From contig CAREEU010000007.1 in NCBI GenBank assembly GCA_948964755.1, positions 1 to 35,416 on the forward strand: a DNA stretch of 35,416 bases, given 5' to 3'. Source of the stretch: an uncultured Lachnospiraceae bacterium (lineage in GTDB: Bacteria; Bacillota; Clostridia; Lachnospirales; Lachnospiraceae). A program made the translations under genes and the position numbers. How positions within the stretch are numbered: the first letter of the stretch is position 1; the number at the start of each line of letters is the position of its first letter. The notes beneath the pieces were generated by a model, which was not told the origin of the DNA, ran no database searches, and saw only the letters and a program-made list of their open reading frames with translations. Positions 3,104 to 35,280 of the stretch are shown here, one piece after another.

Positions 3104-3937
3104 TTATTTTGCAGACAGGGGCGAGCCATAGAAATAGTTGGAAGTCGCACCACCGTCAATTAAAAACGTAGAACCGGTAATAAAAGTGCCTTTGTCACTC
3201 AATAAAAGCTCTGCGACATTTGCTACTTCATCTGCCGTTCCCGGACGACCGGCAGGAGAGTTTGCAAACATATTCTTATAAAAATCTCCGTGCGGGCCAT
3301 TAAATTCATCCAATGCCAGCGGCGTTACAATAATTCCGGGCACAATCGCATTGATACGGGCGTTCCGTTTTCCCCATTTAACAGCCTCTGCCATCACGCA
3401 CTTTTCATTACAGCGTTTCGCCATCTGGTAAGCATGAAGCGTATCACGGATATTTTCCGGCTGCAATATTTCCAATGAAAGCAGTTCCTCTGGCGGCGTG
3501 CAGGCAAGCTGCTCATCCGCCCCCGGAGACAGTTGTTCCATACGGTGTCCGGACTGGCTGGAAATTGTAACACCCACGCCTCCGGGAGCAATGATTTTTC
3601 CCACTTCTTCTAAAAGCACTGCCGTACCATACAGGTCAGCTTTCAAAATCTCCTCAACAGGAGCCTGACTTGGCGAAACACCGGCAGCATTCACCAGCAT
3701 AGTGATACGGCCAGCCTTCTTTGCCTCTGCAATCAAATTCAGGATGGAATCTCTGGAAGATAAGTCCATCTCCATCGGCAGCACATCAAAACCGGCTTCA
3801 TTCATAATCTTAGCGACAGCCTGCGCATTTTCCGTCTTCTTGTCTCCAAGTATAATTTTCTTTCCATAACCCATCCGCCGGGCAATCGCCATGCCAATCT
3901 GCCCTGCGCCGGTTAAAATCATGACTTCCTTTTCCAT
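3104..3937 (-). CDS. Short-chain dehydrogenase/reductase (SDR family oxidoreductase)
   Basis: The protein has a TGAGQIG dinucleotide-binding motif, an NAAG motif and a YxxxK catalytic motif (YQMAK). GGGAGA lies upstream of the ATG. Confidence 0.8.
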   Translation of the reverse strand: MEKEVMILTGAGQIGMAIARRMGYGKKIILGDKKTENAQAVAKIMNEAGFDVLPMEMDLSSRDSILNLIAEAKKAGRITMLVNAAGVSPSQAPVEEILKADLYGTAVLLEEVGKIIAPGGVGVTISSQSGHRMEQLSPGADEQLACTPPEELLSLEILQPENIRDTLHAYQMAKRCNEKCVMAEAVKWGKRNARINAIVPGIIVTPLALDEFNGPHGDFYKNMFANSPAGRPGTADEVANVAELLLSDKGTFITGSTFLIDGGATSNYFYGSPLSAK

Positions 3938-5876: not shown

Positions 5877-6992
5877 TTATGGCTGTTTTTCAAATTCCTT
5901 TGCCACATCCACAAGCAATTCCCGGATATGCAGATGCTGCGGACAGGCTTTCTCACATTTTCCACATTTCATACATTCCGAAGCCTTCCCTTTCCCGCCG
6001 CCGGTATGTACTGCGTTATAATAATAATCAGCGTTCCAGTCGTGATAAATCTGTTTGCTGTTCATGACAGCAAACAGGTCAGGAATGGAAATCTTTTTCG
6101 GACACCCCTCCACGCAATAGCGGCAAGCCGTACAGGGAATCAGATTCATGGAGCTGAAAATCTCCTGCACCCGGCCTACTGCAGCCAGTTCCTTATCCGA
6201 TAAAGGCTGAAAGTCTTTCATGTAACTGATATTGTCCTGCATCTGCTCCATATCGCTCATACCGGAGAGAACCATCATGATCCCCTCAAAGCCAGCGGCA
6301 AACCGGATCGCATAGCTGGCAAAGCTTCCCCCGTGCAATTCCTCCAGGACAGCCTTCGCATTCTCCGGCAAATTGACAAGGTTTCCTCCCTTGACCGGCT
6401 CCATGACGATCACCGGCTTGCCAAATTTCCGGCAGACCTCATAGCATTTGCGGCTCTCTACCGCCGGATCATCGTAATCCACATAATTAAACTGTATCTG
6501 TACCACTTCGATCTGCGGATATTCCGTCAGTATCTGTTCCAGAACCTCCGCCCTGTCATGGAATGAAATCCCAAAATGCCGGAATTTTCCTTCCTCCATC
6601 AGTTCCAGCGCAGTCTCATAAGCACGGCGCTTTTTGAAATAGGCAAAGTTATCCGCCCCCTGTGCGTGCATAAGATAAATATCAAAATAGTCCACTCCGC
6701 ATAGCTTTAGCTGGCTCTCAAAGAACGGGCGTATATCCTCCTGCTCCTTAAAGTAAAAATTGGTCAGCTTATTTGTCAGAATATACCGGTCACGGGGATA
6801 ACGGCTGGTAAGACAAGACTTTAATGCCGCCTCACTTTTCCCTTCAAGATAGCCGTGTGCAGTATCAAAATAATTGAACCCGTTTTCCAGAAAGGTATCC
6901 ACCATCCGGGAAAACTCCACCGTATCGACCTCCCCGCCCTTCATTGGGAGACGCATACATCCAAAACCAAAACTCTTTTTAATCTGTTCCAT
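5877..6992 (-). CDS. Aldo/keto reductase with C-terminal 4Fe-4S ferredoxin-type domain
   Basis: The N-terminal AKR TIM-barrel carries a conserved catalytic tetrad context (DTAHGY...K...H). The C-terminus has two Cys clusters, CTACRYCVEGCP and CMKCGKCEKACP. Confidence 0.8.
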   Translation of the reverse strand: MEQIKKSFGFGCMRLPMKGGEVDTVEFSRMVDTFLENGFNYFDTAHGYLEGKSEAALKSCLTSRYPRDRYILTNKLTNFYFKEQEDIRPFFESQLKLCGVDYFDIYLMHAQGADNFAYFKKRRAYETALELMEEGKFRHFGISFHDRAEVLEQILTEYPQIEVVQIQFNYVDYDDPAVESRKCYEVCRKFGKPVIVMEPVKGGNLVNLPENAKAVLEELHGGSFASYAIRFAAGFEGIMMVLSGMSDMEQMQDNISYMKDFQPLSDKELAAVGRVQEIFSSMNLIPCTACRYCVEGCPKKISIPDLFAVMNSKQIYHDWNADYYYNAVHTGGGKGKASECMKCGKCEKACPQHLHIRELLVDVAKEFEKQP

Positions 6993-8370
6993 AATCTACT
7001 TCTCCTTTTCTAAAAGTTTTTTCCCAAAATAAGCCTAAAAGCATACACGAAACCAAAGTCGAAAATGTATCCGCAACCGGCCCGGCCCATAAAATACCTT
7101 CAATCCCGAAGCAATCTCCAAGAAAAAGCATTGCCGGGATCATAAATACGATCTGCCGTGACATGGAGCAGGCTGCCGATAAAAACGGCCTGCCGATGGA
7201 CTGAAAAAATATCCCGGCGACAGAGGGCACAGGCTGGAGAAAACACGCCAGCAGGAAAATCCGGAATGACAGCACGGCAAATTCCATATATAACTCTGAT
7301 TCCTGGCCAAAAAGCCTGATAATGTTTTCCGGGAATATCTGGAATACCACCAATGCAATGCACATAATGAATATGCTTACTGCCATCGTTATACGAAATG
7401 TTTTTTTCACCCGGTCAAATTGACCGCTCCCATAATTATACCCAAGCAGCGGCTGGACACTGGTAGCAATTCCAAGAGCAACTCCAAACGCCAACTGACA
7501 GACTTTCATTGTAATGCCAAAGGTGGCCAGCGGTATATCCGAACCATACCTTGACTGTCTGCCATAGTTTACCAGCAGGTTATTCATAACGCCAATGACG
7601 AAAACCGCAGCTATCTGTGTGATAAAACTGGAAAAACCAAGCGTTATGATCTTACGGCTGATCCGTATATCTGGACACAGGAACTTTATTTTCAGTTTAA
7701 ATGTCTGAAACCGAAAAATGCAAAACACAAAGTATACCGTATTCAGGAACTGCCCGATGATCGTAGCCCAGGCCGCCCCCTGAACACCCCAATGGAATAC
7801 AAAAATAAATAAAGGATCAAGGATCATATTTGTAACACAGCCAATCAGCAGACCGACCATCGTCTCATTTGGCCTGCCATCCGCACGGATCATGCTGGCA
7901 AAAGAAATATTCACCGCAAAAAACGGGAAGCCAAGAACAATTATTTTCCCGTAATCCAGCGCATAAGGCATAATAGATTCCGTTGCCCCAAACAGGGAAG
8001 AAAGGGGACGGAGAAACACTTCAAAAAATATAAGAGATATAATCCCGGCAAATATCGTAAGTGAAATCATATTCCCTACGCTCCGGGCTGCCGCTTCCCT
8101 GTTTCCCTGCCCCAAATTCAAGCTCATAAACGCTGCAGCACCGTCTCCGATCAAAAGCCCGATAGCTAACATGATCGTTGTCAGCGGCATAATAACGTTT
8201 GTTGCCGCATTCCCAAGATACCCCACTCCCTGGCCGATAAAAATCTGATCAACCATGTTATAAAGAGAATTTACAACAAAAGAAATGATGCTGGGAATCG
8301 CATAACGAATCATCAGTTTTTCAATTTTTTCCGTCCCAAGCGGGTTCGTTATAGATGCTTCCTCAGACAT
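6979..8370 (-). CDS. MATE family multidrug efflux transporter
   Basis: 12-TM MATE architecture with the N-terminal motif LMIRYAIPSIISFVVNSLYNMVDQIFIGQ. Start is placed at ATG 8370 (MSEEAS), which has an AGGAAG RBS. The longer ORF to 8403 has none. The gene overlaps the downstream AKR gene by 14 bp. Confidence 0.75.
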   Translation of the reverse strand: MSEEASITNPLGTEKIEKLMIRYAIPSIISFVVNSLYNMVDQIFIGQGVGYLGNAATNVIMPLTTIMLAIGLLIGDGAAAFMSLNLGQGNREAAARSVGNMISLTIFAGIISLIFFEVFLRPLSSLFGATESIMPYALDYGKIIVLGFPFFAVNISFASMIRADGRPNETMVGLLIGCVTNMILDPLFIFVFHWGVQGAAWATIIGQFLNTVYFVFCIFRFQTFKLKIKFLCPDIRISRKIITLGFSSFITQIAAVFVIGVMNNLLVNYGRQSRYGSDIPLATFGITMKVCQLAFGVALGIATSVQPLLGYNYGSGQFDRVKKTFRITMAVSIFIMCIALVVFQIFPENIIRLFGQESELYMEFAVLSFRIFLLACFLQPVPSVAGIFFQSIGRPFLSAACSMSRQIVFMIPAMLFLGDCFGIEGILWAGPVADTFSTLVSCMLLGLFWEKTFRKGEVDYGTD

Positions 8371-27859: not shown

Positions 27860-28045
27860 TTATTTTGATAACTTGTTTTTCAAACCTGAGAGTTCCCATA
27901 TTCGATTTAATTGATGTTCATAACTAAACTTATCTTTGACAATTTTATAACCGTTTTGTCTAATTTTTTCTGCTTCCTTTTCATGACTTAGATAATATTT
28001 GCACTTATCTAATGCCTCTTCCATAGAACTATATATCAAAAGATC
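27860..28045 (-). other. In-frame 3' continuation of the CgeB-like gene at 28046..29065, separated from it only by one TAA codon
   Basis: Translation directly after the TAA at 28046-28048 continues in frame as DLLIYSSMEEALDKCKYY...FSYEHQLNRIWEL. This aligns residue by residue with the C-terminus of the paralog (ETLVYFTNPAEFSRAIVRY...GHTYWHRIAAIL). The stop aligns with Glu, so GAA to TAA is a single substitution. Confidence 0.55.
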
Positions 28046-29065
28046 TTATCCGTCTTTAAAATATTCATTTAAATCTTCTTGATAATTTGTCATTGCTAAT
28101 GCATGACAGCCCATAATATCAATCACTCGCTGAGGGATACCCCGGCGAATATTTCGCAATGTAATATTTAAATTTATTTTACTACACTTAAATACAAGCG
28201 GCATATCATATCTATAATCTACAGGTTCACATATCTTTACATTTGGAAGTTTCGGACTATTTATGGTAAACAACTTTACATGATAATATTTTGCCAATAG
28301 TGTAAGTAAAAGTATTCTCTCTTTATTGGTTACTGCCTTTAAAAGAAAAGCAATCAATCCCCAACTTTTTACTTCTTCTACATCATGAAAAAAATTATGA
28401 TTCAAATTTTTCAATAAAGCTTCTGTTACTTTTTGATTGCATAGACGTTTAATAAGATTTTCATTAATTAATTCTTGAATAAAATTCGTACCATAAACAT
28501 TTAACTGTATATTAATCAGTGCTGCAATATAGCCTGCACCATATTCATCAAATAGGGGAAACATTTTATCCATATCTGATTGATAAAGCTGCCCAACAAA
28601 AGAAATATCTGCATGATATTTCATCCTTCCCATGGGAGTAGGTTTCATTCGACTTAAACGTCTAGCATCAGCTGCCAAAGGTAAATAATAAAAAATATTT
28701 TTTACTCCATGTTCCTGAAATTCCTCATATTCCGAAGAATCAAATAAAAAAATACGATTGGTGTCAAAAAAATGAGTTTCATTTGCTATGCCTAAGGCTG
28801 GACTATCATATGTCCAACAAATATAAAGTATATTTCTTGCATGTGCTGCCTCTGCCAACTCCAAAAAAAAATTAATAGAAAAAATTGCATCATATTTTTT
28901 ATTATCTAAGGCTTTTTCCAAATCCTCCCGAAACTGCTTACTTTGTGAATTTACTCTAGGATTTGACTTTGAATTAAATAAATCATATTCAATCCCCTGT
29001 TTCTGCATTGCTCTATACAAATCATACTTTGTAATAAAATTCCAATCATAAATAAATAGCTTCAT
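28046..29065 (-). CDS. CgeB-like glycosyltransferase, truncated by an in-frame TAA (possible pseudogene or nonsense allele)
   Basis: The 339-aa protein has an AGGAG RBS. It lacks the last ~60 residues present in the paralog. Those residues are encoded in frame immediately after the stop. Confidence 0.6.
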   Translation of the reverse strand: MKLFIYDWNFITKYDLYRAMQKQGIEYDLFNSKSNPRVNSQSKQFREDLEKALDNKKYDAIFSINFFLELAEAAHARNILYICWTYDSPALGIANETHFFDTNRIFLFDSSEYEEFQEHGVKNIFYYLPLAADARRLSRMKPTPMGRMKYHADISFVGQLYQSDMDKMFPLFDEYGAGYIAALINIQLNVYGTNFIQELINENLIKRLCNQKVTEALLKNLNHNFFHDVEEVKSWGLIAFLLKAVTNKERILLLTLLAKYYHVKLFTINSPKLPNVKICEPVDYRYDMPLVFKCSKINLNITLRNIRRGIPQRVIDIMGCHALAMTNYQEDLNEYFKDG

Positions 29066-29174: not shown

Positions 29175-30758
29175 TTAACCAAGAAGAGAAAGAACTCCTT
29201 GATTGCTCTGATTTGCTTGAGCTAACATAGATTGACCAGCTTGAGCCAAAATATTATTATTCGCATATCTTACCATTTCAGTAGCCATATCCGTATCACG
29301 AATTTGACTTTCAGCACTTGTCGTATTCTCCACTACATTATCTAAGTTATTAATTGTATGCTCTAAACGGTTTTGAACAGCACCAAGGGCAGCTCTTTGA
29401 TCAGAAACCTTATTCAATGCCGCTTTAATTGTTTCAATTGCATTTAATGCATTTGTATCATCTTCTCCATTTACCTTTAAACCAGTGACACCAATTGCCT
29501 TAGCACTCATAGACTTTATATCAAGAGAAATCTGATTATTGGTTGTAGCATCTGCACCTACATGAAGATTCAAAGTTAAAGCACCTACATCAAATTTATC
29601 TGTATAACTTAACAATCTATCCACGTCAGCCTGTGTTGCCAACTGACGGTCAGTTGCACCCTCTCCTGTCTTTAAATACAGTTCTGCATTAGGATCTAAC
29701 TTACCGTTGTTGTTAATATATTTATCTAAACCATTCGCAGCAATCTCATTACCATCCTTATCAATAAATTGAACTACGCCCTTACTTGTATAGTCAGAAT
29801 AAGCGACAGAATCTACAGCAAGTTTTACAGGAGCAAGCGTAGAATAATACTTCGATATATCTGCAGCAGTCGCACCAATATCTGTCCCTATCTCTTTCCT
29901 ATTTCCATCTGAATCATATACTTCTGTCTTCAGCTTATAATGTGCACCAGTATCAGTTATAGTATTACTAGCAATTGCAACTGCTTGGCTCTTTATATCA
30001 CCTGTTCCAGCACTAGAAGAATAATAAGTTATTGTTGAATCATATGCTTCCCCAGAAGCAACTTGATAATATTCATCTCCCACTTTCTTCAAATACTTAC
30101 CTGTACTATCCGTGAAAACTGCTTCCGAATTATTTAAGAAATTACCAGAATCACTAGATGCAATCGCTACTCCATAGGTTGCACCTGTACTGTCACTATA
30201 ATATACTTTTGTTGAATCAACTGCTGTTTTCAACGTCCCTTTCGATAAAGTCTTAACGGTATTATCTTCTACATAGTAAAGGTCTTGGCTAATCACATCT
30301 ACTTCTTTATATTGGAAATTTGTGTCTTTTGCAGCATTTACATCCCCTTTTAACAAATAAGTTTCATTAAACTTCGTTGTCTCCGATACACGATCGATTT
30401 CTGTTACCAACTGATCGATCTCAGCCTGAATCGCATCTCTATCAGAAGAAGAATTCGTTCCATTTGCTGCCTTTACTGCCAATTCATTCATTCTCTGAAG
30501 CATATCCTGTACTTCTGTCAATGCACCTTCTGCTGTCTGTACGGCACTGATTCCGTCCTGTGCATTAGAAGAAGCCTGTGTCAGTCCTCGGATCTGCTTT
30601 CTCATTTTTTCGGAAATTGCCAAACCTGCTGCATCGTCTGCTGCACGATTGATCTTATAACCAGATGATAATTTTTCTGTGGATTTTGCCTGAGCCTTGG
30701 TTGTGATACCTAGCATACGATTAGAATTCATTGCTGTAAGATTGTGTTGTACTACCAT
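29175..30758 (-). CDS. fliC: Flagellin
   Basis: Conserved N-terminal ([24 protein letters not shown]) and C-terminal ([24 protein letters not shown]) flagellin domains flank a ~250-aa Ser/Thr/Tyr/Asp-rich variable region. AAGGAGG RBS is upstream. Confidence 0.9.
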
Positions 30759-30826
30759 AAAATATACCTCCTTGTAATACGGCTTGTTTCATCATTTTTC
30801 TTTTCCCTTGCCGTTTCTTTGTTATG

Positions 30827-30846
30827 CGGTCAACTCCATTTGCCGC
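30827..30846 (-). promoter_or_regulatory. Candidate CsrA-binding hairpin in fliC 5' leader (GGA in loop); a second GGA site overlaps the SD
   Basis: On the minus strand GCGGcaaatGGAgttgaCCGC presents the GGA in a loop. The SD context is caAGGAGG. This is the pattern known from the B. subtilis hag leader. Confidence 0.35.
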
Positions 30847-30894
30847 TTTGGTAAGAAAAGTCTTACCTCATTTCTTAAAAAATCTATCTCGGAT

Positions 30895-30903
30895 TTCCAC
30901 CAA
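30895..30903 (-). promoter_or_regulatory. Weak sigma-D-like -10 (TCCGAGATA vs GCCGATAT) upstream of fliC
   Basis: The match is partial. The -35 TAAA element was not found convincingly. Confidence 0.2.
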
Positions 30904-31022
30904 ATATCATTTCTTTTGATTTCTTTCCGAATTTAATAATCCGAATCGCATCCCGCTTTTGGGCCCGATTGTTGCGGACTGCTTTCGGTTATTAACCATA
31001 ATAAATAACCTCTCTTCTTCTT

Positions 31023-31277
31023 TTAGCTTCCTGCCTTCGAAGAAAATTTCTTTTTTCGAAACCGTTCTGCCAATTCCGGTTCTGCATAATATTGAGGAAG
31101 AGATCCCCTCTCTTCTTCCGGCACGTTCTGTTCCATCACTTTACTTCTCACTACACCGACTTCCTTTGGTGCATCAATCAGAATTCGAAGATGGCTTTTA
31201 CTGCCTCCTAAAAATGCAATCTTAATATTATCCCCTATCATCAGGTATTCTTCTGTACTTAGAGTCAGTCTTAACAT
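31023..31277 (-). CDS. csrA: Carbon storage regulator CsrA (flagellin translational repressor)
   Basis: MLRLTLSTEEYLMIGDNIKIAFLGG...ILIDAPKEVGVVRSKV matches the CsrA fold signature (MLVLTRK..IGD.I...V......V.IGI.AP..V.I.R.E). AAGGAGG RBS is upstream. It lies directly upstream of fliC. Confidence 0.8.
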   Translation of the reverse strand: MLRLTLSTEEYLMIGDNIKIAFLGGSKSHLRILIDAPKEVGVVRSKVMEQNVPEEERGSLPQYYAEPELAERFRKKKFSSKAGS

Positions 31278-31320
31278 CTAAAAACCTCCTTGTTTTCTCC
31301 ATGTCTTCTGTGCCAATATG

Positions 31321-31355
31321 AAAATGCAACATTTGTTAGTAAAATGTTGCATTTT
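31321..31355. promoter_or_regulatory. lox/FRT-like candidate recombination core site 1 (14-bp perfect inverted arms, 7-bp spacer GTTAGTA)
   Basis: The site reads AAAATGCAACATTT-GTTAGTA-AAATGTTGCATTTT. It lies between the divergent csrA and recombinase genes and overlaps a putative -10 (TAAAAT 31340-31345). Confidence 0.6.
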
Positions 31356-31390
31356 TAAGAAAGCAAAATTCAACGAACGGAGGATCTATC

Positions 31391-31981
31391 ATGAGCACAA
31401 CACAGCCTATTAAAAGCAAAGATGCACTGAACCAATTTAAAAATTATTATTTGCTGCAAAAACCTCAGCCAAGAAACTATACCCTGATTATATTGGGACT
31501 AAATACAGCACTGCGAATCTCCGATATTCTCACATTAAAATGGAACGATATCTATGATGACCATACTAAAACCATGAAAAAACATTTAGAAGTAATAGAA
31601 CAAAAGACTGGAAAATCCCGCACGATTGCATTAAACCGCTCTATCTGCACCACCCTAAAAAACTACCTCTCGTATTCCTTCCAGGAAAAACCCTATGAAA
31701 AAGAGCAGTATCTCTTCTTAAGTCAGAAAGGAAAGAATGAGCCAATCAGTCGTTCTCAAGCCTACCGAATTATCTGTACTGCTGCCAAAGCATCTGGACT
31801 GGATCAACATATCAGCTGCCACTCTCTAAGGAAGACATTCGGTTATCATGCGTGGAAACAGGGAACCCCTCCAGCCCTTTTAATGGATCTTTACAATCAC
31901 TCCTCCTACAGCATTACCAAGCGATATTTAAGTATTGAACAAGACGAAAGAGATGAAGTGTATTTAAAAATTACACTCTAA
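31391..31981 (+). CDS. Minimal tyrosine recombinase (phage-integrase catalytic domain only, FimB/FimE-sized)
   Basis: The 196-aa protein has the catalytic residues in order: R (NTALRISD), K (TGKSRTIAL), HxxR (HSLRKTF), H/W (GYHAW) and Y (TKRYL). GGAGGA RBS is upstream. There is no N-terminal core-binding/SAM-like domain. Confidence 0.8.
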   Translation: MSTTQPIKSKDALNQFKNYYLLQKPQPRNYTLIILGLNTALRISDILTLKWNDIYDDHTKTMKKHLEVIEQKTGKSRTIALNRSICTTLKNYLSYSFQEKPYEKEQYLFLSQKGKNEPISRSQAYRIICTAAKASGLDQHISCHSLRKTFGYHAWKQGTPPALLMDLYNHSSYSITKRYLSIEQDERDEVYLKITL

Positions 31982-31996
31982 TCCAATCACAAAAAA

Positions 31997-32031
31997 AAAT
32001 GCCGCTTATCGACAGAGGATAAGCGGCATTT
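31997..32031 (-). terminator. Strong hairpin terminator (14-bp stem, 7-nt loop) with A9 on the plus strand, giving T9 on the minus strand
   Basis: AAATGCCGCTTATC-gacagag-GATAAGCGGCATTT is the stem-loop. On the minus strand it is followed by TTTTTTTTT, so it terminates transcripts arriving from the ABC-transporter side. On the plus strand it is a weaker terminator for the recombinase gene. Confidence 0.65.
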
Positions 32032-32109
32032 CCCTTGAAAAATAAAAAATTTAAAAAAATTCAAAAACGCTATAAAGTATTTTATAAAAACACCGATATA
32101 AAAAATATA

Positions 32110-32144
32110 AAAATACAACATTTTACTAACAAGTGTTGTATTTT
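32110..32144. promoter_or_regulatory. lox/FRT-like candidate recombination core site 2 (spacer TACTAAC, exact reverse complement of the site-1 spacer)
   Basis: AAAATACAACATTT-TACTAAC-AAGTGTTGTATTTT matches the reverse complement of site 1 at 32 of 35 positions. The arm changes within site 2 are self-consistent (G to A in both arms). Confidence 0.6.
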
Positions 32145-32309
32145 TATTTTTTATAAAGTATCTTCCTTTTCTATTCTACTAAACAGCATAAACAAAAGCA
32201 AATATTTTTATACATATCTATCATATCTTATAAAATTCAAGAAAATTTTTCATCTTTTTCCTAAATTTTCTGTATTTTACAACACATTATACAAATCAAA
32301 TATTCTATT

Positions 32310-34523
32310 TCATTCACTAATAGAGTACTGAAATAAAATCCAAGTACTAATAAAATAACAAATCAGCAGCAGCATAAGAATTCCCCCAGTTGCACCTATC
32401 TGTATCAGCAGTGCCCTACTCCCAATATATGCCGAAATTTCTGCCGATATCGTCTGAACAAAGTAAACAAGCACAACGACAGCCGCCCCTACTGCAACAA
32501 CAACGGGAAGTCCAAACCACACTCCTAACTGCCGAAATACAAGTCTTTTGATTCTCTGCTCTTCCACTCCCAATTTTCGAAGTACGGAAAAACGATAGCG
32601 ATACTGCCCTGCATCCAAAAGCTGCTGCAGAGAAAGTATGGTAAGACAGATTACCATCAACACAACGGCAGCATAAATCATCCCCGCCTGCAGAACAAAA
32701 TTATTGGCCTTTGTACCATTTATCTGCAGGGTACGCAAACGAATTCCATATGCTGTGCCATTCTCTGTCTGCTCGGGATATTCTTTTATAAATTCCCTTT
32801 CCAATTTACAAGCATCCGCATAAGAAATCCCTCTCTCTGTTAGAATATAGCGATCCCGCATAACCGGAAGCAAACTTTCACAAATCGAATCTGGAAAGAC
32901 ATACAAAACATTGGTATAGGAATTGTAAACCGTTTGTCCGATTTCATGCTGATAATAAGACTCTTCTGAAAGCGTCAATTCCCCGGCATCTGTTAGGATA
33001 TGGGTATGTTCTCTAAGAAAATCGTCCCGTTCCTCCTTTGCTGCAACGGATTTCCACTGTGTTGTAAATTCATTCTCCTCTAAAAAAATCGGTTCTTTCC
33101 CTAACATCGTCAGTATCCTATTATAATCACTAAGAGAAATCGCCACAGCAGGAAATTCATATTTCTTCCGATTATGAAACTCTTCTTTCTTAGGTAAATA
33201 CAGATAAAAGGTACAATCAGAAGCAATCTCGATCCTATGCTCTCCCAAAAAATCACTTGCCAGCAAATAGTCATCCTGCGGCAAATATTCTTCTTGATAG
33301 ACCTGATTATATCTGGAAAAAATCTGCACATCATACATCGAACGGCTGTCCAAATATCCAGAAGCCCAACCTGTTAAAATAGGTGCCGCAATAAACATCA
33401 CAATCGCAAGTACTAAAGTAATACTGATCAGCGTCATTGTCTTACTGGTGGTATTTAATTTCGAAATAATCTGTCCCCAAAAAAACAAATTTTCTCCATT
33501 ATACTTATGTTCCGGTGACTTTTCCTTCCATGCGGCAATCTGACCGCTTGCCAAATAGATCAAATCACAGATAAAAAACAGCAGATCCGCCAAAAGAAAC
33601 ACCAGATATTGATTTTTTATCCCCGACCCCAACGGCAGATAATATTGATGGATTATACCCGGTACACTGGCTGCCAAAAAAGCATTACAAACCGAACACA
33701 CCAACAGTCCCAAAAGTAAGGAAGAATCCTTTCTTTTTTTCCTTCGGACAATCCACAATAAAAAGCAGCCTAATGTAACAGCCGGAAAAAAAAGATTCCC
33801 CCAGAACATAACCTGTACAGGAACAGCAAAACGGCTGTCATAATAAAACCAAACCTTCCGTATCCCAGTTATAAGTCTCCAAAGCATAAATCCTTCGAAA
33901 ATCCTCACCACTGCAAAAATCCAACGGCTCTTCTTCAATTCAGGCTCATTCTCTCTATCCGCCGAAAGCATCGCAACAATTTTCGTCTTTCGAATCATAT
34001 AAGTATTCAAACTTCCCACTGCAAAAAAACTTAAAATAAAAAACACTGCCGTCAGCAATACCGTATCTGGAAACAGTGTCCATGCCAACTGATACGTTTT
34101 CCCATAAGAAGTCAATAACATTGCCGTAATAAACTGAGAACAAAACACACCAAAAAAAATTCCCAGTCCGATAGAAATCATTCCCATTATCAGCGTTTCC
34201 GCAAAGAAAAGCCCCGCAACCGTCTTTTGCTCCATTCCCATAATCAACTGAAGGGCAAACTCTTTCTGCTTCCGCTGCAGCATATATCGATTCACAAACC
34301 AGATTAAAAAAGCCAAACACAATGTAATCATACAGACGGCCGCTTTCATTCCGTCACTAAGCATCGTAAAATCATACTCACTTCCAATATCCGGCTTATA
34401 ATATCTGCTGGAAATAGACAAAAACGAATAAAACAGCGTTACACATATCGTCATAGTTACAACATAAACTAAATAATCCCTTACCGACCGCTTAGCATTT
34501 CGAAAAACCAGTTTCACATACAT
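32310..34523 (-). CDS. ABC transporter permease, FtsX-like (BceB-type, 10 TM with large extracellular loop)
   Basis: The 737-aa protein has the FtsX/MacB-type permease architecture. It overlaps the upstream ATPase gene by 32 bp. Confidence 0.8.
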   Translation of the reverse strand: MYVKLVFRNAKRSVRDYLVYVVTMTICVTLFYSFLSISSRYYKPDIGSEYDFTMLSDGMKAAVCMITLCLAFLIWFVNRYMLQRKQKEFALQLIMGMEQKTVAGLFFAETLIMGMISIGLGIFFGVFCSQFITAMLLTSYGKTYQLAWTLFPDTVLLTAVFFILSFFAVGSLNTYMIRKTKIVAMLSADRENEPELKKSRWIFAVVRIFEGFMLWRLITGIRKVWFYYDSRFAVPVQVMFWGNLFFPAVTLGCFLLWIVRRKKRKDSSLLLGLLVCSVCNAFLAASVPGIIHQYYLPLGSGIKNQYLVFLLADLLFFICDLIYLASGQIAAWKEKSPEHKYNGENLFFWGQIISKLNTTSKTMTLISITLVLAIVMFIAAPILTGWASGYLDSRSMYDVQIFSRYNQVYQEEYLPQDDYLLASDFLGEHRIEIASDCTFYLYLPKKEEFHNRKKYEFPAVAISLSDYNRILTMLGKEPIFLEENEFTTQWKSVAAKEERDDFLREHTHILTDAGELTLSEESYYQHEIGQTVYNSYTNVLYVFPDSICESLLPVMRDRYILTERGISYADACKLEREFIKEYPEQTENGTAYGIRLRTLQINGTKANNFVLQAGMIYAAVVLMVICLTILSLQQLLDAGQYRYRFSVLRKLGVEEQRIKRLVFRQLGVWFGLPVVVAVGAAVVVLVYFVQTISAEISAYIGSRALLIQIGATGGILMLLLICYFISTWILFQYSISE

Positions 34524-35280
34524 GACTCTTTCCTCCTCCCATCATAGTCAGCACATTTAAAATCTTTTGAAAAAAGGCACTTCTGCTGTCACTCCCTTTA
34601 TACAATTCCATAAAAATTTCCCCATCCTGCAAAAATAAAATCCGCTCAGCATAACTAGCTGTAAAAGCATCATGTGTCACCATTAAAATCGTTGTTCCAA
34701 TCTGTCTATGAATCCCTTGAATCGTAGATAACAGCATCTGTGCCGAATGACTGTCCAAAGCCCCGGTCGGTTCATCCGCTAACAAAAGCTTCGGCTTATG
34801 AATCATTGCCCTGGTACAGGCACAACGCTGCTTCTGCCCTCCAGATACCTGATAAGGATATTTATCAAGAATATCACAAATATTCAACTGTTCTGCCATT
34901 TCTAAAACAGCTTTCTCAATCATCCTTGCAGGCATCCGATTAATTGTCAGTGCCAATGCAATATTTTCGGAAATGGTCAGTGTATCCAACAAATTAAAAT
35001 CTTGAAACACAAAACCCAAATTTTCTCTGCGAAACCGAGCAAGCGACTTTGGCTTTATCTCCGTTATATCTGTTCCATCCAAATAGATATGACCTGCACT
35101 TACCGTATCAATCGTAGAGATACAATTAAGCAGTGTTGTTTTCCCGGAACCAGAAGCTCCCATAATACTAAGAAATTCACCTGCTTCCACCGAAAAACTA
35201 ATATCTTTAATCGCTTTTGTCAGATTTCCTTTATTTCCATAATATTTTTGAATATGTTCCAACTCTAAAATCATATACAT
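34492..35280 (-). CDS. ABC transporter ATP-binding protein (BceA-type)
   Basis: The protein has Walker A (GASGSGKTT), the ABC signature (VSGGQKQR) and Walker B (LLLADEPTGALD). The start may instead be ATG 35274, which has better RBS spacing. Confidence 0.85.
   Translation of the reverse strand: MYMILELEHIQKYYGNKGNLTKAIKDISFSVEAGEFLSIMGASGSGKTTLLNCISTIDTVSAGHIYLDGTDITEIKPKSLARFRRENLGFVFQDFNLLDTLTISENIALALTINRMPARMIEKAVLEMAEQLNICDILDKYPYQVSGGQKQRCACTRAMIHKPKLLLADEPTGALDSHSAQMLLSTIQGIHRQIGTTILMVTHDAFTASYAERILFLQDGEIFMELYKGSDSRSAFFQKILNVLTMMGGGKSHVCETGFSKC

Follow-up and report, generated by a model that had tools for sequence, protein, structure and literature searches.

A putative self-contained invertible sigma-28 promoter cassette with its own tyrosine recombinase beside csrA-fliC in Lachnospiraceae

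The described system closest in design to the locus that we analyze here is the Hin/hix switch of Salmonella (hin-fljBA), in which the recombinase gene likewise lies inside its own invertible segment, and an outward promoter drives flagellin together with a post-transcriptional regulator (fljA there, csrA here), giving either ON/OFF control or flagellin alternation. Our locus lies in a stretch of 35,416 nucleotides (nt) from an uncultured Lachnospiraceae bacterium (contig CAREEU010000007.1); this whole stretch is called the window, and coordinates below are window positions unless a locus number beginning with L precedes them. At positions 31321-32144, a small tyrosine recombinase gene is enclosed by two inverted sites, directly next to a csrA paralogue and a flagellin gene (fliC). 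We interpret this element, with a probability of roughly 80%, as a self-contained invertible sigma-28 promoter cassette controlling csrA-fliC. Hin differs in being a serine recombinase with a Fis-bound enhancer, 26-bp hix sites and a 2-bp crossover, whereas the element in the window combines a tyrosine recombinase (PF00589) and lox-like sites with arms of 11-14 nt around a 7-nt spacer. It further differs from Hin/hix in having a sigma-28-type promoter, a site that is predicted to double as a terminator stem, and many copies per genome.

In enzyme type, the closest systems are FimB/FimE of E. coli and RecV of C. difficile, although their switches differ from ours in site structure, in the place of the recombinase gene and in mode of action. 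FimB and FimE are tyrosine recombinases of about 200 amino acids (aa) without an N-terminal core-binding domain, which invert the promoter-bearing element fimS for ON/OFF control of a surface appendage, in a layout that is shared by one of the loci described below (L067). However, fimS has 9-bp inverted repeats, a sigma-70 promoter, external recombinase genes and a dependence on IHF and Lrp, whereas here the sites are long palindromes and the segment usually contains the recombinase gene. A preliminary description of the window had stated that flagellar switches driven by tyrosine recombinases are known in Clostridia, and this is borne out by the C. difficile flagellar switch (Cdi4) and RecV, where inversion controls flagellar genes (PMC5386303, PMC7446863). 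Cdi4 is a 154-bp switch in the flgB leader that acts after transcription initiation via Rho and moves no promoter (PMC7446863); unlike the locus in the window, it controls an early flagellar operon rather than an individual flagellin gene, and RecV acts on several switches from a gene located elsewhere. The flagellin genes of Roseburia and Eubacterium have been predicted in silico to be mostly sigma-28-dependent, in a survey that names no recombinase (PMC3720852).

The sites themselves recall Cre/loxP and FLP/FRT, where inverted arms also surround a short asymmetric spacer, the orientation of the spacer decides between inversion and excision, and partner sites need identical spacers; these systems differ in their 13-8-13 sites (11-14-nt arms and a 7-nt spacer here), in an extra N-terminal DNA-binding domain and in their roles in plasmid or phage maintenance. 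Inverting type I hsdS loci, such as SpnD39III/creX of S. pneumoniae, also carry a tyrosine recombinase gene within or between the inverting repeats of their own locus, but there coding segments are shuffled through repeats inside genes and no promoter is moved. In the open-access literature searched, we found no description of the cassette or of flagellin phase variation in Lachnospiraceae, in agreement with the preliminary description, which did not recognize this arrangement of a recombinase inside its own switch. Inverton group 139 with invertase group 35 (PMC11892184) was considered as a possible match and rejected, as these are invertons of about 230 bp, unlike the cassette. The switching logic as such is of a known kind, namely classical invertible-promoter phase variation.

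The architecture of the two sites could be read back from the sequence as it had been described. Site 1, proximal to csrA, is AAAATGCAACATTT GTTAGTA AAATGTTGCATTTT, a 14-7-14 arrangement of perfect 14-nt palindromic arms around an asymmetric spacer. Site 2 is AAAATACAACATTT TACTAAC AAGTGTTGTATTTT, with 3 arm substitutions relative to site 1 and a spacer that exactly matches the reverse complement of that of site 1, which places the sites in inverted orientation. The inverted repeat extends somewhat beyond the sites, to 43 nt at 88% identity (31315-31357 and 32108-32150), with about 750 nt between the copies, and 31321-32144 thereby shows the inverted-repeat arrangement by which an invertible promoter switch (inverton) is recognized. 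When up to 3 mismatches were allowed, the site pattern was found at these two positions only in the 35.4-kb window, and never in 100 dinucleotide-preserving shuffles. The arm variants of site 2 (TACAAC, twice, and AAGTG) recur at sites elsewhere in the family, among them those of the homologue shown below to invert. Within the species of the window, we compared at least 21 long contigs that encode an identical recombinase protein, and used 8 of them as strain variants; these 8 differ from the window at 0-17 positions over the 1.1 kb around the cassette, and both sites are unchanged in all of them.

Checking whether the same site architecture occurs in other genomes, as the preliminary description had proposed, provided the strongest context for these sites. 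Relatives of the recombinase number in the thousands (192-196 aa; 7965/7965 scored candidates passed an E-value of 1e-3), are labelled just 'tyrosine-type recombinase/integrase', and come mostly from Lachnospiraceae, spread over hundreds of gut species. At least 587 loci were found in species-representative genomes, often several per genome, and we analyzed the best 80 plus five others, giving 85 loci, one per species. In 69 of these, paired sites of the plan CAAC-N15-GTTG stand on either side of the recombinase gene, while 16/85 have no recognizable site pair. The half-site consensus of the family is (A)ATGCAACATTT, inverted around a 7-nt spacer. Within a locus, the two spacers are identical as reverse complements in 67/69 cases, even though 42 distinct spacers occur; mean spacer identity between loci is 0.44, and it is 0.31 if the two sites of a pair are read as direct repeats. 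Such covariation is informative, because a tyrosine recombinase can exchange strands between inverted sites only if their spacers match, whereas an operator, a terminator or a transposon end is under no such constraint. The cassette almost always stands beside a csrA-flagellin pair. Acetatifactor aquisgranensis DSM 110981, Petralouisia muris and Jutongia huaianensis NSJ-37 are cultured organisms that carry homologous cassettes.

Since each copy usually has its own spacer (paralogous cassettes of one genome differ in spacer in 4/5 genomes), the spacer fits the role of an address that would pair only the two sites of one cassette. The genomes compared here were those with L009/L010, L015/L037, L020/L024/L039, L022/L029 and L047/L051. 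In CBFFYP01, both cassettes share the spacer GTTAATA, which could permit recombination between cassettes.

The preliminary description had overlooked a further element inside the cassette. At its 3' end, directed outward through site 2, lies a sigma-28-type promoter sequence with a single mismatch to TAAA-N15-GCCGATAT, matching 11/12 consensus positions at exact spacing, from which transcription is predicted to start near 32106-32108. An outward sigma-28 motif, TAAAGT-N14-CCGATATA, is present in 69/69 cassettes compared with 4/2222 control windows (0.18%). It always lies between the stop codon of the recombinase gene and the second site, its spacing is fixed in 66/69, and the median distance from the end of its -10 element to the site is 22 nt. 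The promoter hexamers are also unchanged among the strains of the window species. The A/T-rich tract that precedes the promoter is possibly an UP element, a function proposed from its composition. A search for separate promoters turned up no sigma-28 motif in the csrA-fliC intergenic region, either in the window or in any of 59 homologous loci (0/59), and a separate sigma-28 or sigma-70 promoter for fliC was therefore rejected for these loci. As the intergenic region lacks such a motif, the cassette promoter is the only recognizable flagellar promoter for csrA-fliC, and on these motif data it is the predicted outward sigma-28 promoter that is the moving element that matters.

The flanks of the cassette are asymmetric in a second respect. 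Across the 69 loci, the flank away from csrA carries a mean of 7.2 T in the 10 nt following the palindrome, compared with 2.0 on the csrA flank, and the T-run stays with the non-csrA flank whether a locus is OFF or ON. The window palindromes fold stably as RNA (-16.6 and -17.7 kcal/mol), so that the site-2 palindrome with its T-run looks like an intrinsic terminator that would act on the sigma-28 transcript when the cassette is OFF. As the T-run follows the palindrome there and not on the csrA side, transcription that exits the cassette on the far side would meet a terminator-like structure. No credible Rfam RNA family was found in 30500-32500. The preliminary description had instead stressed a second hairpin, inside the cassette. 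Its run of nine T on one strand only (T9) is indeed there, but such a hairpin occurs in 4/69 cassettes only, and it is therefore a local addition rather than part of the core of the switch; as a moving regulatory part of the family we rejected it. It is positioned to stop transcription from the neighboring ATP-binding cassette (ABC) transporter genes, and is probably a local terminator that insulates the cassette and csrA-fliC against read-through from that operon.

Direct evidence for inversion comes from a homologue. Among the 69 loci, 63 are OFF (promoter directed away from csrA-flagellin, as in the window), 5 are ON and 1 is a toggle between two flagellin genes (L082); L073 has the same plan as L082, and is counted among the 5 ON loci since its contig is cut at one end. 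In the species whose recombinase, designated P0123, is 54.6% identical to that of the window, contigs from independent samples encode an identical recombinase protein and show both orientations: L112-L115 and L121 are ON (recombinase, promoter, csrA and flagellin in succession), while L116-L120 are inverted and OFF. When L112 is aligned with L116, the left flank (99.3% identity) and the csrA-flagellin flank (100% identity) match in reverse, whereas the 780-bp cassette between them matches in forward direction (99.7% identity). The breakpoints overlap by 30 bp and coincide exactly with the two sites. One arm differs by a single base (CACTT versus CATTT), and this variant remains with the csrA flank in both states; the crossover must therefore have taken place in the spacer or inner arm.

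Two side observations concern the same species. The csrA gene is called as 116 aa in the ON state (L112 4643-4993) and as 82 aa in the OFF state (L116 422-670), because the open reading frame can run on across the hybrid site; the difference is an artefact of annotation, but one that could mark orientation in databases. In L114 (2219-3598), a relaxase gene is inserted in the flank away from csrA, and other samples of the species lack the insertion. Three further leads on orientation in other contigs were discarded: the Logan contigs of species P0113, whose ends had been considered as a sign of mixed orientation, end in a transfer RNA gene and not at a site; L155 is close to the ON locus L013 but of insufficient length to inform on this; and P0022, considered as a paired-site species, proved to have a degenerate single-site locus.

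The protein encoded in the cassette has PF00589 as its sole Pfam match (110.8 bits against a cut-off of 27.1; Table 1), and a serine invertase of the Hin/Gin/Cin/Pin type was ruled out, there being no resolvase domain. The candidate active-site residues R42, K72, H144, R147, H170 and Y179 are invariant in 24 homologues, and align to the motifs RVGE, GKGDK, HVLRH, GHAS and IY of XerA (5hxy). In an AlphaFold model (predicted local distance difference test score 88.4), the protein matches Brujita integrase, XerA, Tn1549 Int, the lambda Int core and Cre with a Foldseek probability of 1.00, at 14-24% identity to their catalytic domains. It has no counterpart of the N-terminal core-binding domain (in XerA, the match begins only at residue 120-150), in agreement with its earlier description as a catalytic-domain-only enzyme between the sites. 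The likeness in size to FimB/FimE that had also been pointed out holds for the length of about 200 aa and for the alignment, as residues 27-177 are collinear with positions 32-174 of the 200-position FimB model, and collinear with the FimE model too, but it does not extend to family membership. The scores for these models are 58.9 and 54.3 bits against curated cut-offs of 221 and 222 (NF007370 and NF007371). The Xer models are likewise not reached (XerA 89.6 versus 220, XerD 67.7 versus 329.6, XerC 66.8 versus 335, XerS 46.9 versus 267), nor are the thresholds of any of the integron models. Because it scores under every curated family threshold, the protein is, as judged from these profiles, a tyrosine recombinase of an uncurated family.

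The 12 polymorphic positions inside the recombinase gene among the 8 strain variants all fall on third codon positions, and all are synonymous; the protein is therefore under purifying selection. Together, these features suggest that the window recombinase would catalyze strand exchange. In addition, the end of the site-1 spacer and the inner arm (31335-31345) often read as a -10-like hexamer that faces the recombinase gene, TAAAAT in the window and TATAAT or TATAAA at homologous sites, with the site about 22 nt from the recombinase start in several homologues. Site 1 may thus also be part of the recombinase promoter, with a -35 element from whichever flank adjoins.

From these elements, we propose the following mechanism. 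Dimers of the recombinase would bind both palindromic sites (arms of 11-14 bp), and strand exchange within the identical but oppositely oriented 7-bp spacers would flip the interior of about 750 bp. In the OFF state, which is that of the window, the promoter would face away from csrA-fliC and fire rightward from about 32106, giving a transcript of about 45 nt, whose 5' end would lie a few nucleotides ahead of site 2 and which would fold into the hairpin of that site and stop at the U-run (32141-32152). The csrA-fliC genes, with only a short leader after site 1 and no promoter of their own, would stay silent, and the T9 hairpin would also block read-through from the upstream ABC-transporter operon. 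Inverting the segment in silico places the promoter 10 nt from a hybrid site, AAAATACAACATTT-TACTAAC-AAATGTTGCATTTT, with TTTTCATATTGG and the ribosome-binding site of csrA coming next; the resulting ON junctions are CCAATATGAAAATGCAACATTTGTTAGTAAAATGTTGTATTTTTATATTTTTTATATCGGTG on the left (which contains ...GCAACATTTGTTAGTAAAATGTTGTATTTTTATATTTTTTATATCGGTG...) and TTTTGCTTTCTTAAAAATGCAACATTTTACTAACAAGTGTTGTATTTTTATTTTTT on the right. In the ON state, transcription would enter csrA and the flagellin gene, and probably also the modification genes that follow, and it should continue into csrA because the csrA flank has no T-run. The preliminary description had likewise proposed that inversion of the cassette leads to phase-variable flagellin expression; the architecture of 69/85 loci, the spacer covariation and the two states of P0123 all speak for this, with the correction that the part that moves is the promoter, and not the terminator. 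What the csrA product contributes is a matter of speculation: by analogy with FljA, it might repress other flagellins, or it might autoregulate the new one.

Several observations weigh against a functioning switch in the window. The OFF orientation dominates the family, which would not be usual for a flagellin that the cell needs. At about 20 contigs each, six further paired-site species (P0078, P0021, P0003, P0002, P0219 and P0113) showed OFF only, and one species only showed mixed orientations. In that species, P0123, the crossover is bounded only to the spacer plus inner arm, about 18 nt. All 21 contigs of the window species share the orientation of the window, and a metagenome scan for the window's promoter-plus-inner-arm sequence gave 0 matches. 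For the recombinase gene itself, only weak sigma-70-like promoter matches were seen, overlapping site 1, and the activities of promoter, terminator and recombinase are all predictions from sequence. The occurrence of the opposite orientation in assemblies, which had been put forward as a check, is hence confirmed for a homologue, with breakpoints in the sites, and not for the species of the window; as its 21 contigs show a single orientation, which at species level partly amounts to the refuting outcome that the preliminary description had named, we infer inversion of the window's own copy from its relatives. For the same reason, the main rival explanation for the window is that the family switch is real but that this copy has become evolutionarily locked OFF, as a silent, archived flagellin locus without a meaningful inversion rate. 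The departure of site 2 from site 1 at three arm positions would be in line with this, as would the existence of locked or degenerate relatives (L126, with one degenerate site and 22 contigs in one orientation) and of the 16 loci without a recognizable site pair. However, the three arm variants also occur in sites of other members, the inverting homologue among them, and conservation is complete for both sites and the match of their spacers, for the promoter hexamers and for the protein among strains that differ at 1-1.5% of neighboring positions, with nothing but synonymous substitutions in the gene. Assemblies moreover give the majority orientation only, so that a minority ON population would escape. 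We therefore consider a locked copy unlikely, although it deserves to be taken seriously.

Two other explanations would do without a dedicated switch. The palindromes could be operators or terminator hairpins that are bound by a recombinase-like regulator or another factor, with the inversions in relatives resulting from rare RecA-dependent recombination. The sites do fold as stable RNA hairpins that are terminator-like with the T-run, orientation is constant within most species, and a repressor with a recombinase fold, MrpR of SPbeta (8a0a), is among the fold matches. An operator has no need of matching inverted spacers, though, yet 67/69 loci keep them across 42 different spacers, and no catalytic residue varies, the tyrosine included. 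For homologous recombination, 30 bp is also a very short repeat length, and the L112/L116 breakpoints fall inside such 30-bp sites with the arm variant staying on its flank, which makes this explanation improbable. Still less credible, in our view, is that the cassette is primarily a mobile element, bounded by terminal inverted repeats and inserting ahead of csrA-flagellin genes, whose orientation would record the direction of insertion. The family is indeed multi-copy within genomes, always with terminal inverted repeats, and a cassette can diverge more than its flanks (L055 versus L061). Nevertheless, between L112 and L116 the flanks and cassette are 99-100% identical and orientation alone has changed, in place; no direct target duplication flanks the window cassette; terminal repeats require neither spacer identity nor a T-run on the non-csrA flank; and homologues stand almost always beside csrA or flagellin genes, with the csrA-flagellin module apparently having been duplicated together with the cassette in L048. 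An invertible promoter cassette thus remains our preferred reading of the locus.

Variants of the cassette differ in what the promoter would control. In L082 (3601-5059) and L073 (34-1058), the cassette separates two flagellin genes that diverge from it and are nearly identical at their 5' ends, and its promoter would toggle between the two flagellins rather than between ON and OFF. The 5' untranslated regions and N-terminal coding regions of these flagellin genes form inverted repeats of 216 bp and 84 bp. In L067 (Agathobacter sp., 3744-3935), the two sites bracket a promoter-only segment of about 125 bp with the promoter facing csrA, and the recombinase gene lies just outside it with its own terminator, in a fim-like layout that obeys the T-run rule. 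L126 (1355-2290; P0022, 69% identical) looks like a degenerate, locked relative: the upstream site, the sigma-28 motif and csrA are missing, the single downstream site is decayed, and the recombinase gene is co-directional with the flagellin gene in all 22 contigs read. In L048 (2021-7705; Acetatifactor aquisgranensis DSM 110981), two flagellin-csrA-cassette modules follow each other in tandem. A frameshift is suggested for the second recombinase gene, as its match is broken into two parts (6763-7146 and 7151-7315).

The features of the window locus are collected in Table 1. Gene calls and Pfam matches agree with the earlier assignment of csrA-fliC to one side of the cassette and a BceAB-type ABC operon to the other. 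Beyond the flagellin gene, to the left, lie DUF3880/glycosyltransferase and radical S-adenosylmethionine genes. The DUF3880/glycosyltransferase gene (27860-29065, minus strand) is split into open reading frames of 339 aa and 59 aa in the window and in L002, and is a single gene of 401 aa in the same-species strains L003, L004, L006 and L007; it may be a strain-specific pseudogene in a flagellin-modification cluster. To the right, the BceAB-type ABC transporter genes (32310-35280) and an adjacent histidine kinase/response regulator pair read toward the cassette, and this group extends past the right end of the window (L001 10008-11710).

Table 1. Coordinates of the cassette, its predicted regulatory elements and the adjoining genes in the window.
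Feature	Position	Strand	Details
Flagellin gene, 527 aa, presumed output of the switch	29175-30758	-	Flagellin_N and Flagellin_C domains
csrA paralogue, 84 aa, first gene of the putatively controlled operon	31023-31277	-	PF02599, E 1.3e-16
csrA leader with ribosome-binding site AAGGAGG	31278-31320	-	43 nt; no own promoter; no T-run after palindrome
Recombination site 1, csrA-proximal	31321-31355		outer arm 31321-31334, spacer GTTAGTA 31335-31341, inner arm 31342-31355
Recombinase ribosome-binding site GGAGG	31379-31383	+	7 nt before ATG, read from sequence
Tyrosine recombinase gene, 196 aa, catalytic domain only	31391-31981	+	PF00589, E 7.9e-32
Hairpin, 14-bp stem followed by nine T on minus strand only	31997-32031	-	-24.3 kcal/mol, z -6.3
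A/T-rich tract upstream of promoter	32036-32072	+	similar A/T tracts in most homologues
Predicted sigma-D/sigma-28 (FliA)-type promoter TAAAGTATTTTATAAAAACACCGATAT	32073-32099	+	-35 TAAA(GT) 32073-32078; -10 (A)CCGATAT 32092-32099
Recombination site 2	32110-32144		inner arm 32110-32123, spacer TACTAAC 32124-32130, outer arm 32131-32144
T-run TTTTTATTTTTT directly after site-2 palindrome	32141-32152	+	RNA fold -16.6 kcal/mol, z -4.9
FtsX-type permease	32310-34523	-	165 nt from site 2
ABC ATPase	34492-35280	-	beside FtsX-type permease

Looking beyond the window, we think it slightly more probable than the contrary that Lachnospiraceae, from which most immunodominant commensal flagellins come, keep silent flagellin operons, each gated by its own recombinase cassette that would move a sigma-28 promoter between a terminator and such an operon or from one flagellin gene to another, with the spacers preventing cross-recombination; CsrA might in addition silence other flagellins. 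The flagellins of Lachnospiraceae are major targets of host immunity, through TLR5, IgA responses and the anti-flagellin antibodies of Crohn's disease. If the proposal is true, gut commensals across this family would share a previously undescribed system for varying their flagellar antigens, run by an uncharacterized recombinase family, and a reversible, heritable switch for each flagellin operon would explain how many flagellin genes can be carried while few are exposed. Because the cassette is compact (about 820 bp) and apparently addressed by its spacer, orthogonal recombinase/site pairs for Firmicutes could follow from it. Flagellin expression states would furthermore become readable from metagenomic reads, and thousands of proteins that are labelled just 'tyrosine-type recombinase/integrase' would gain a function.

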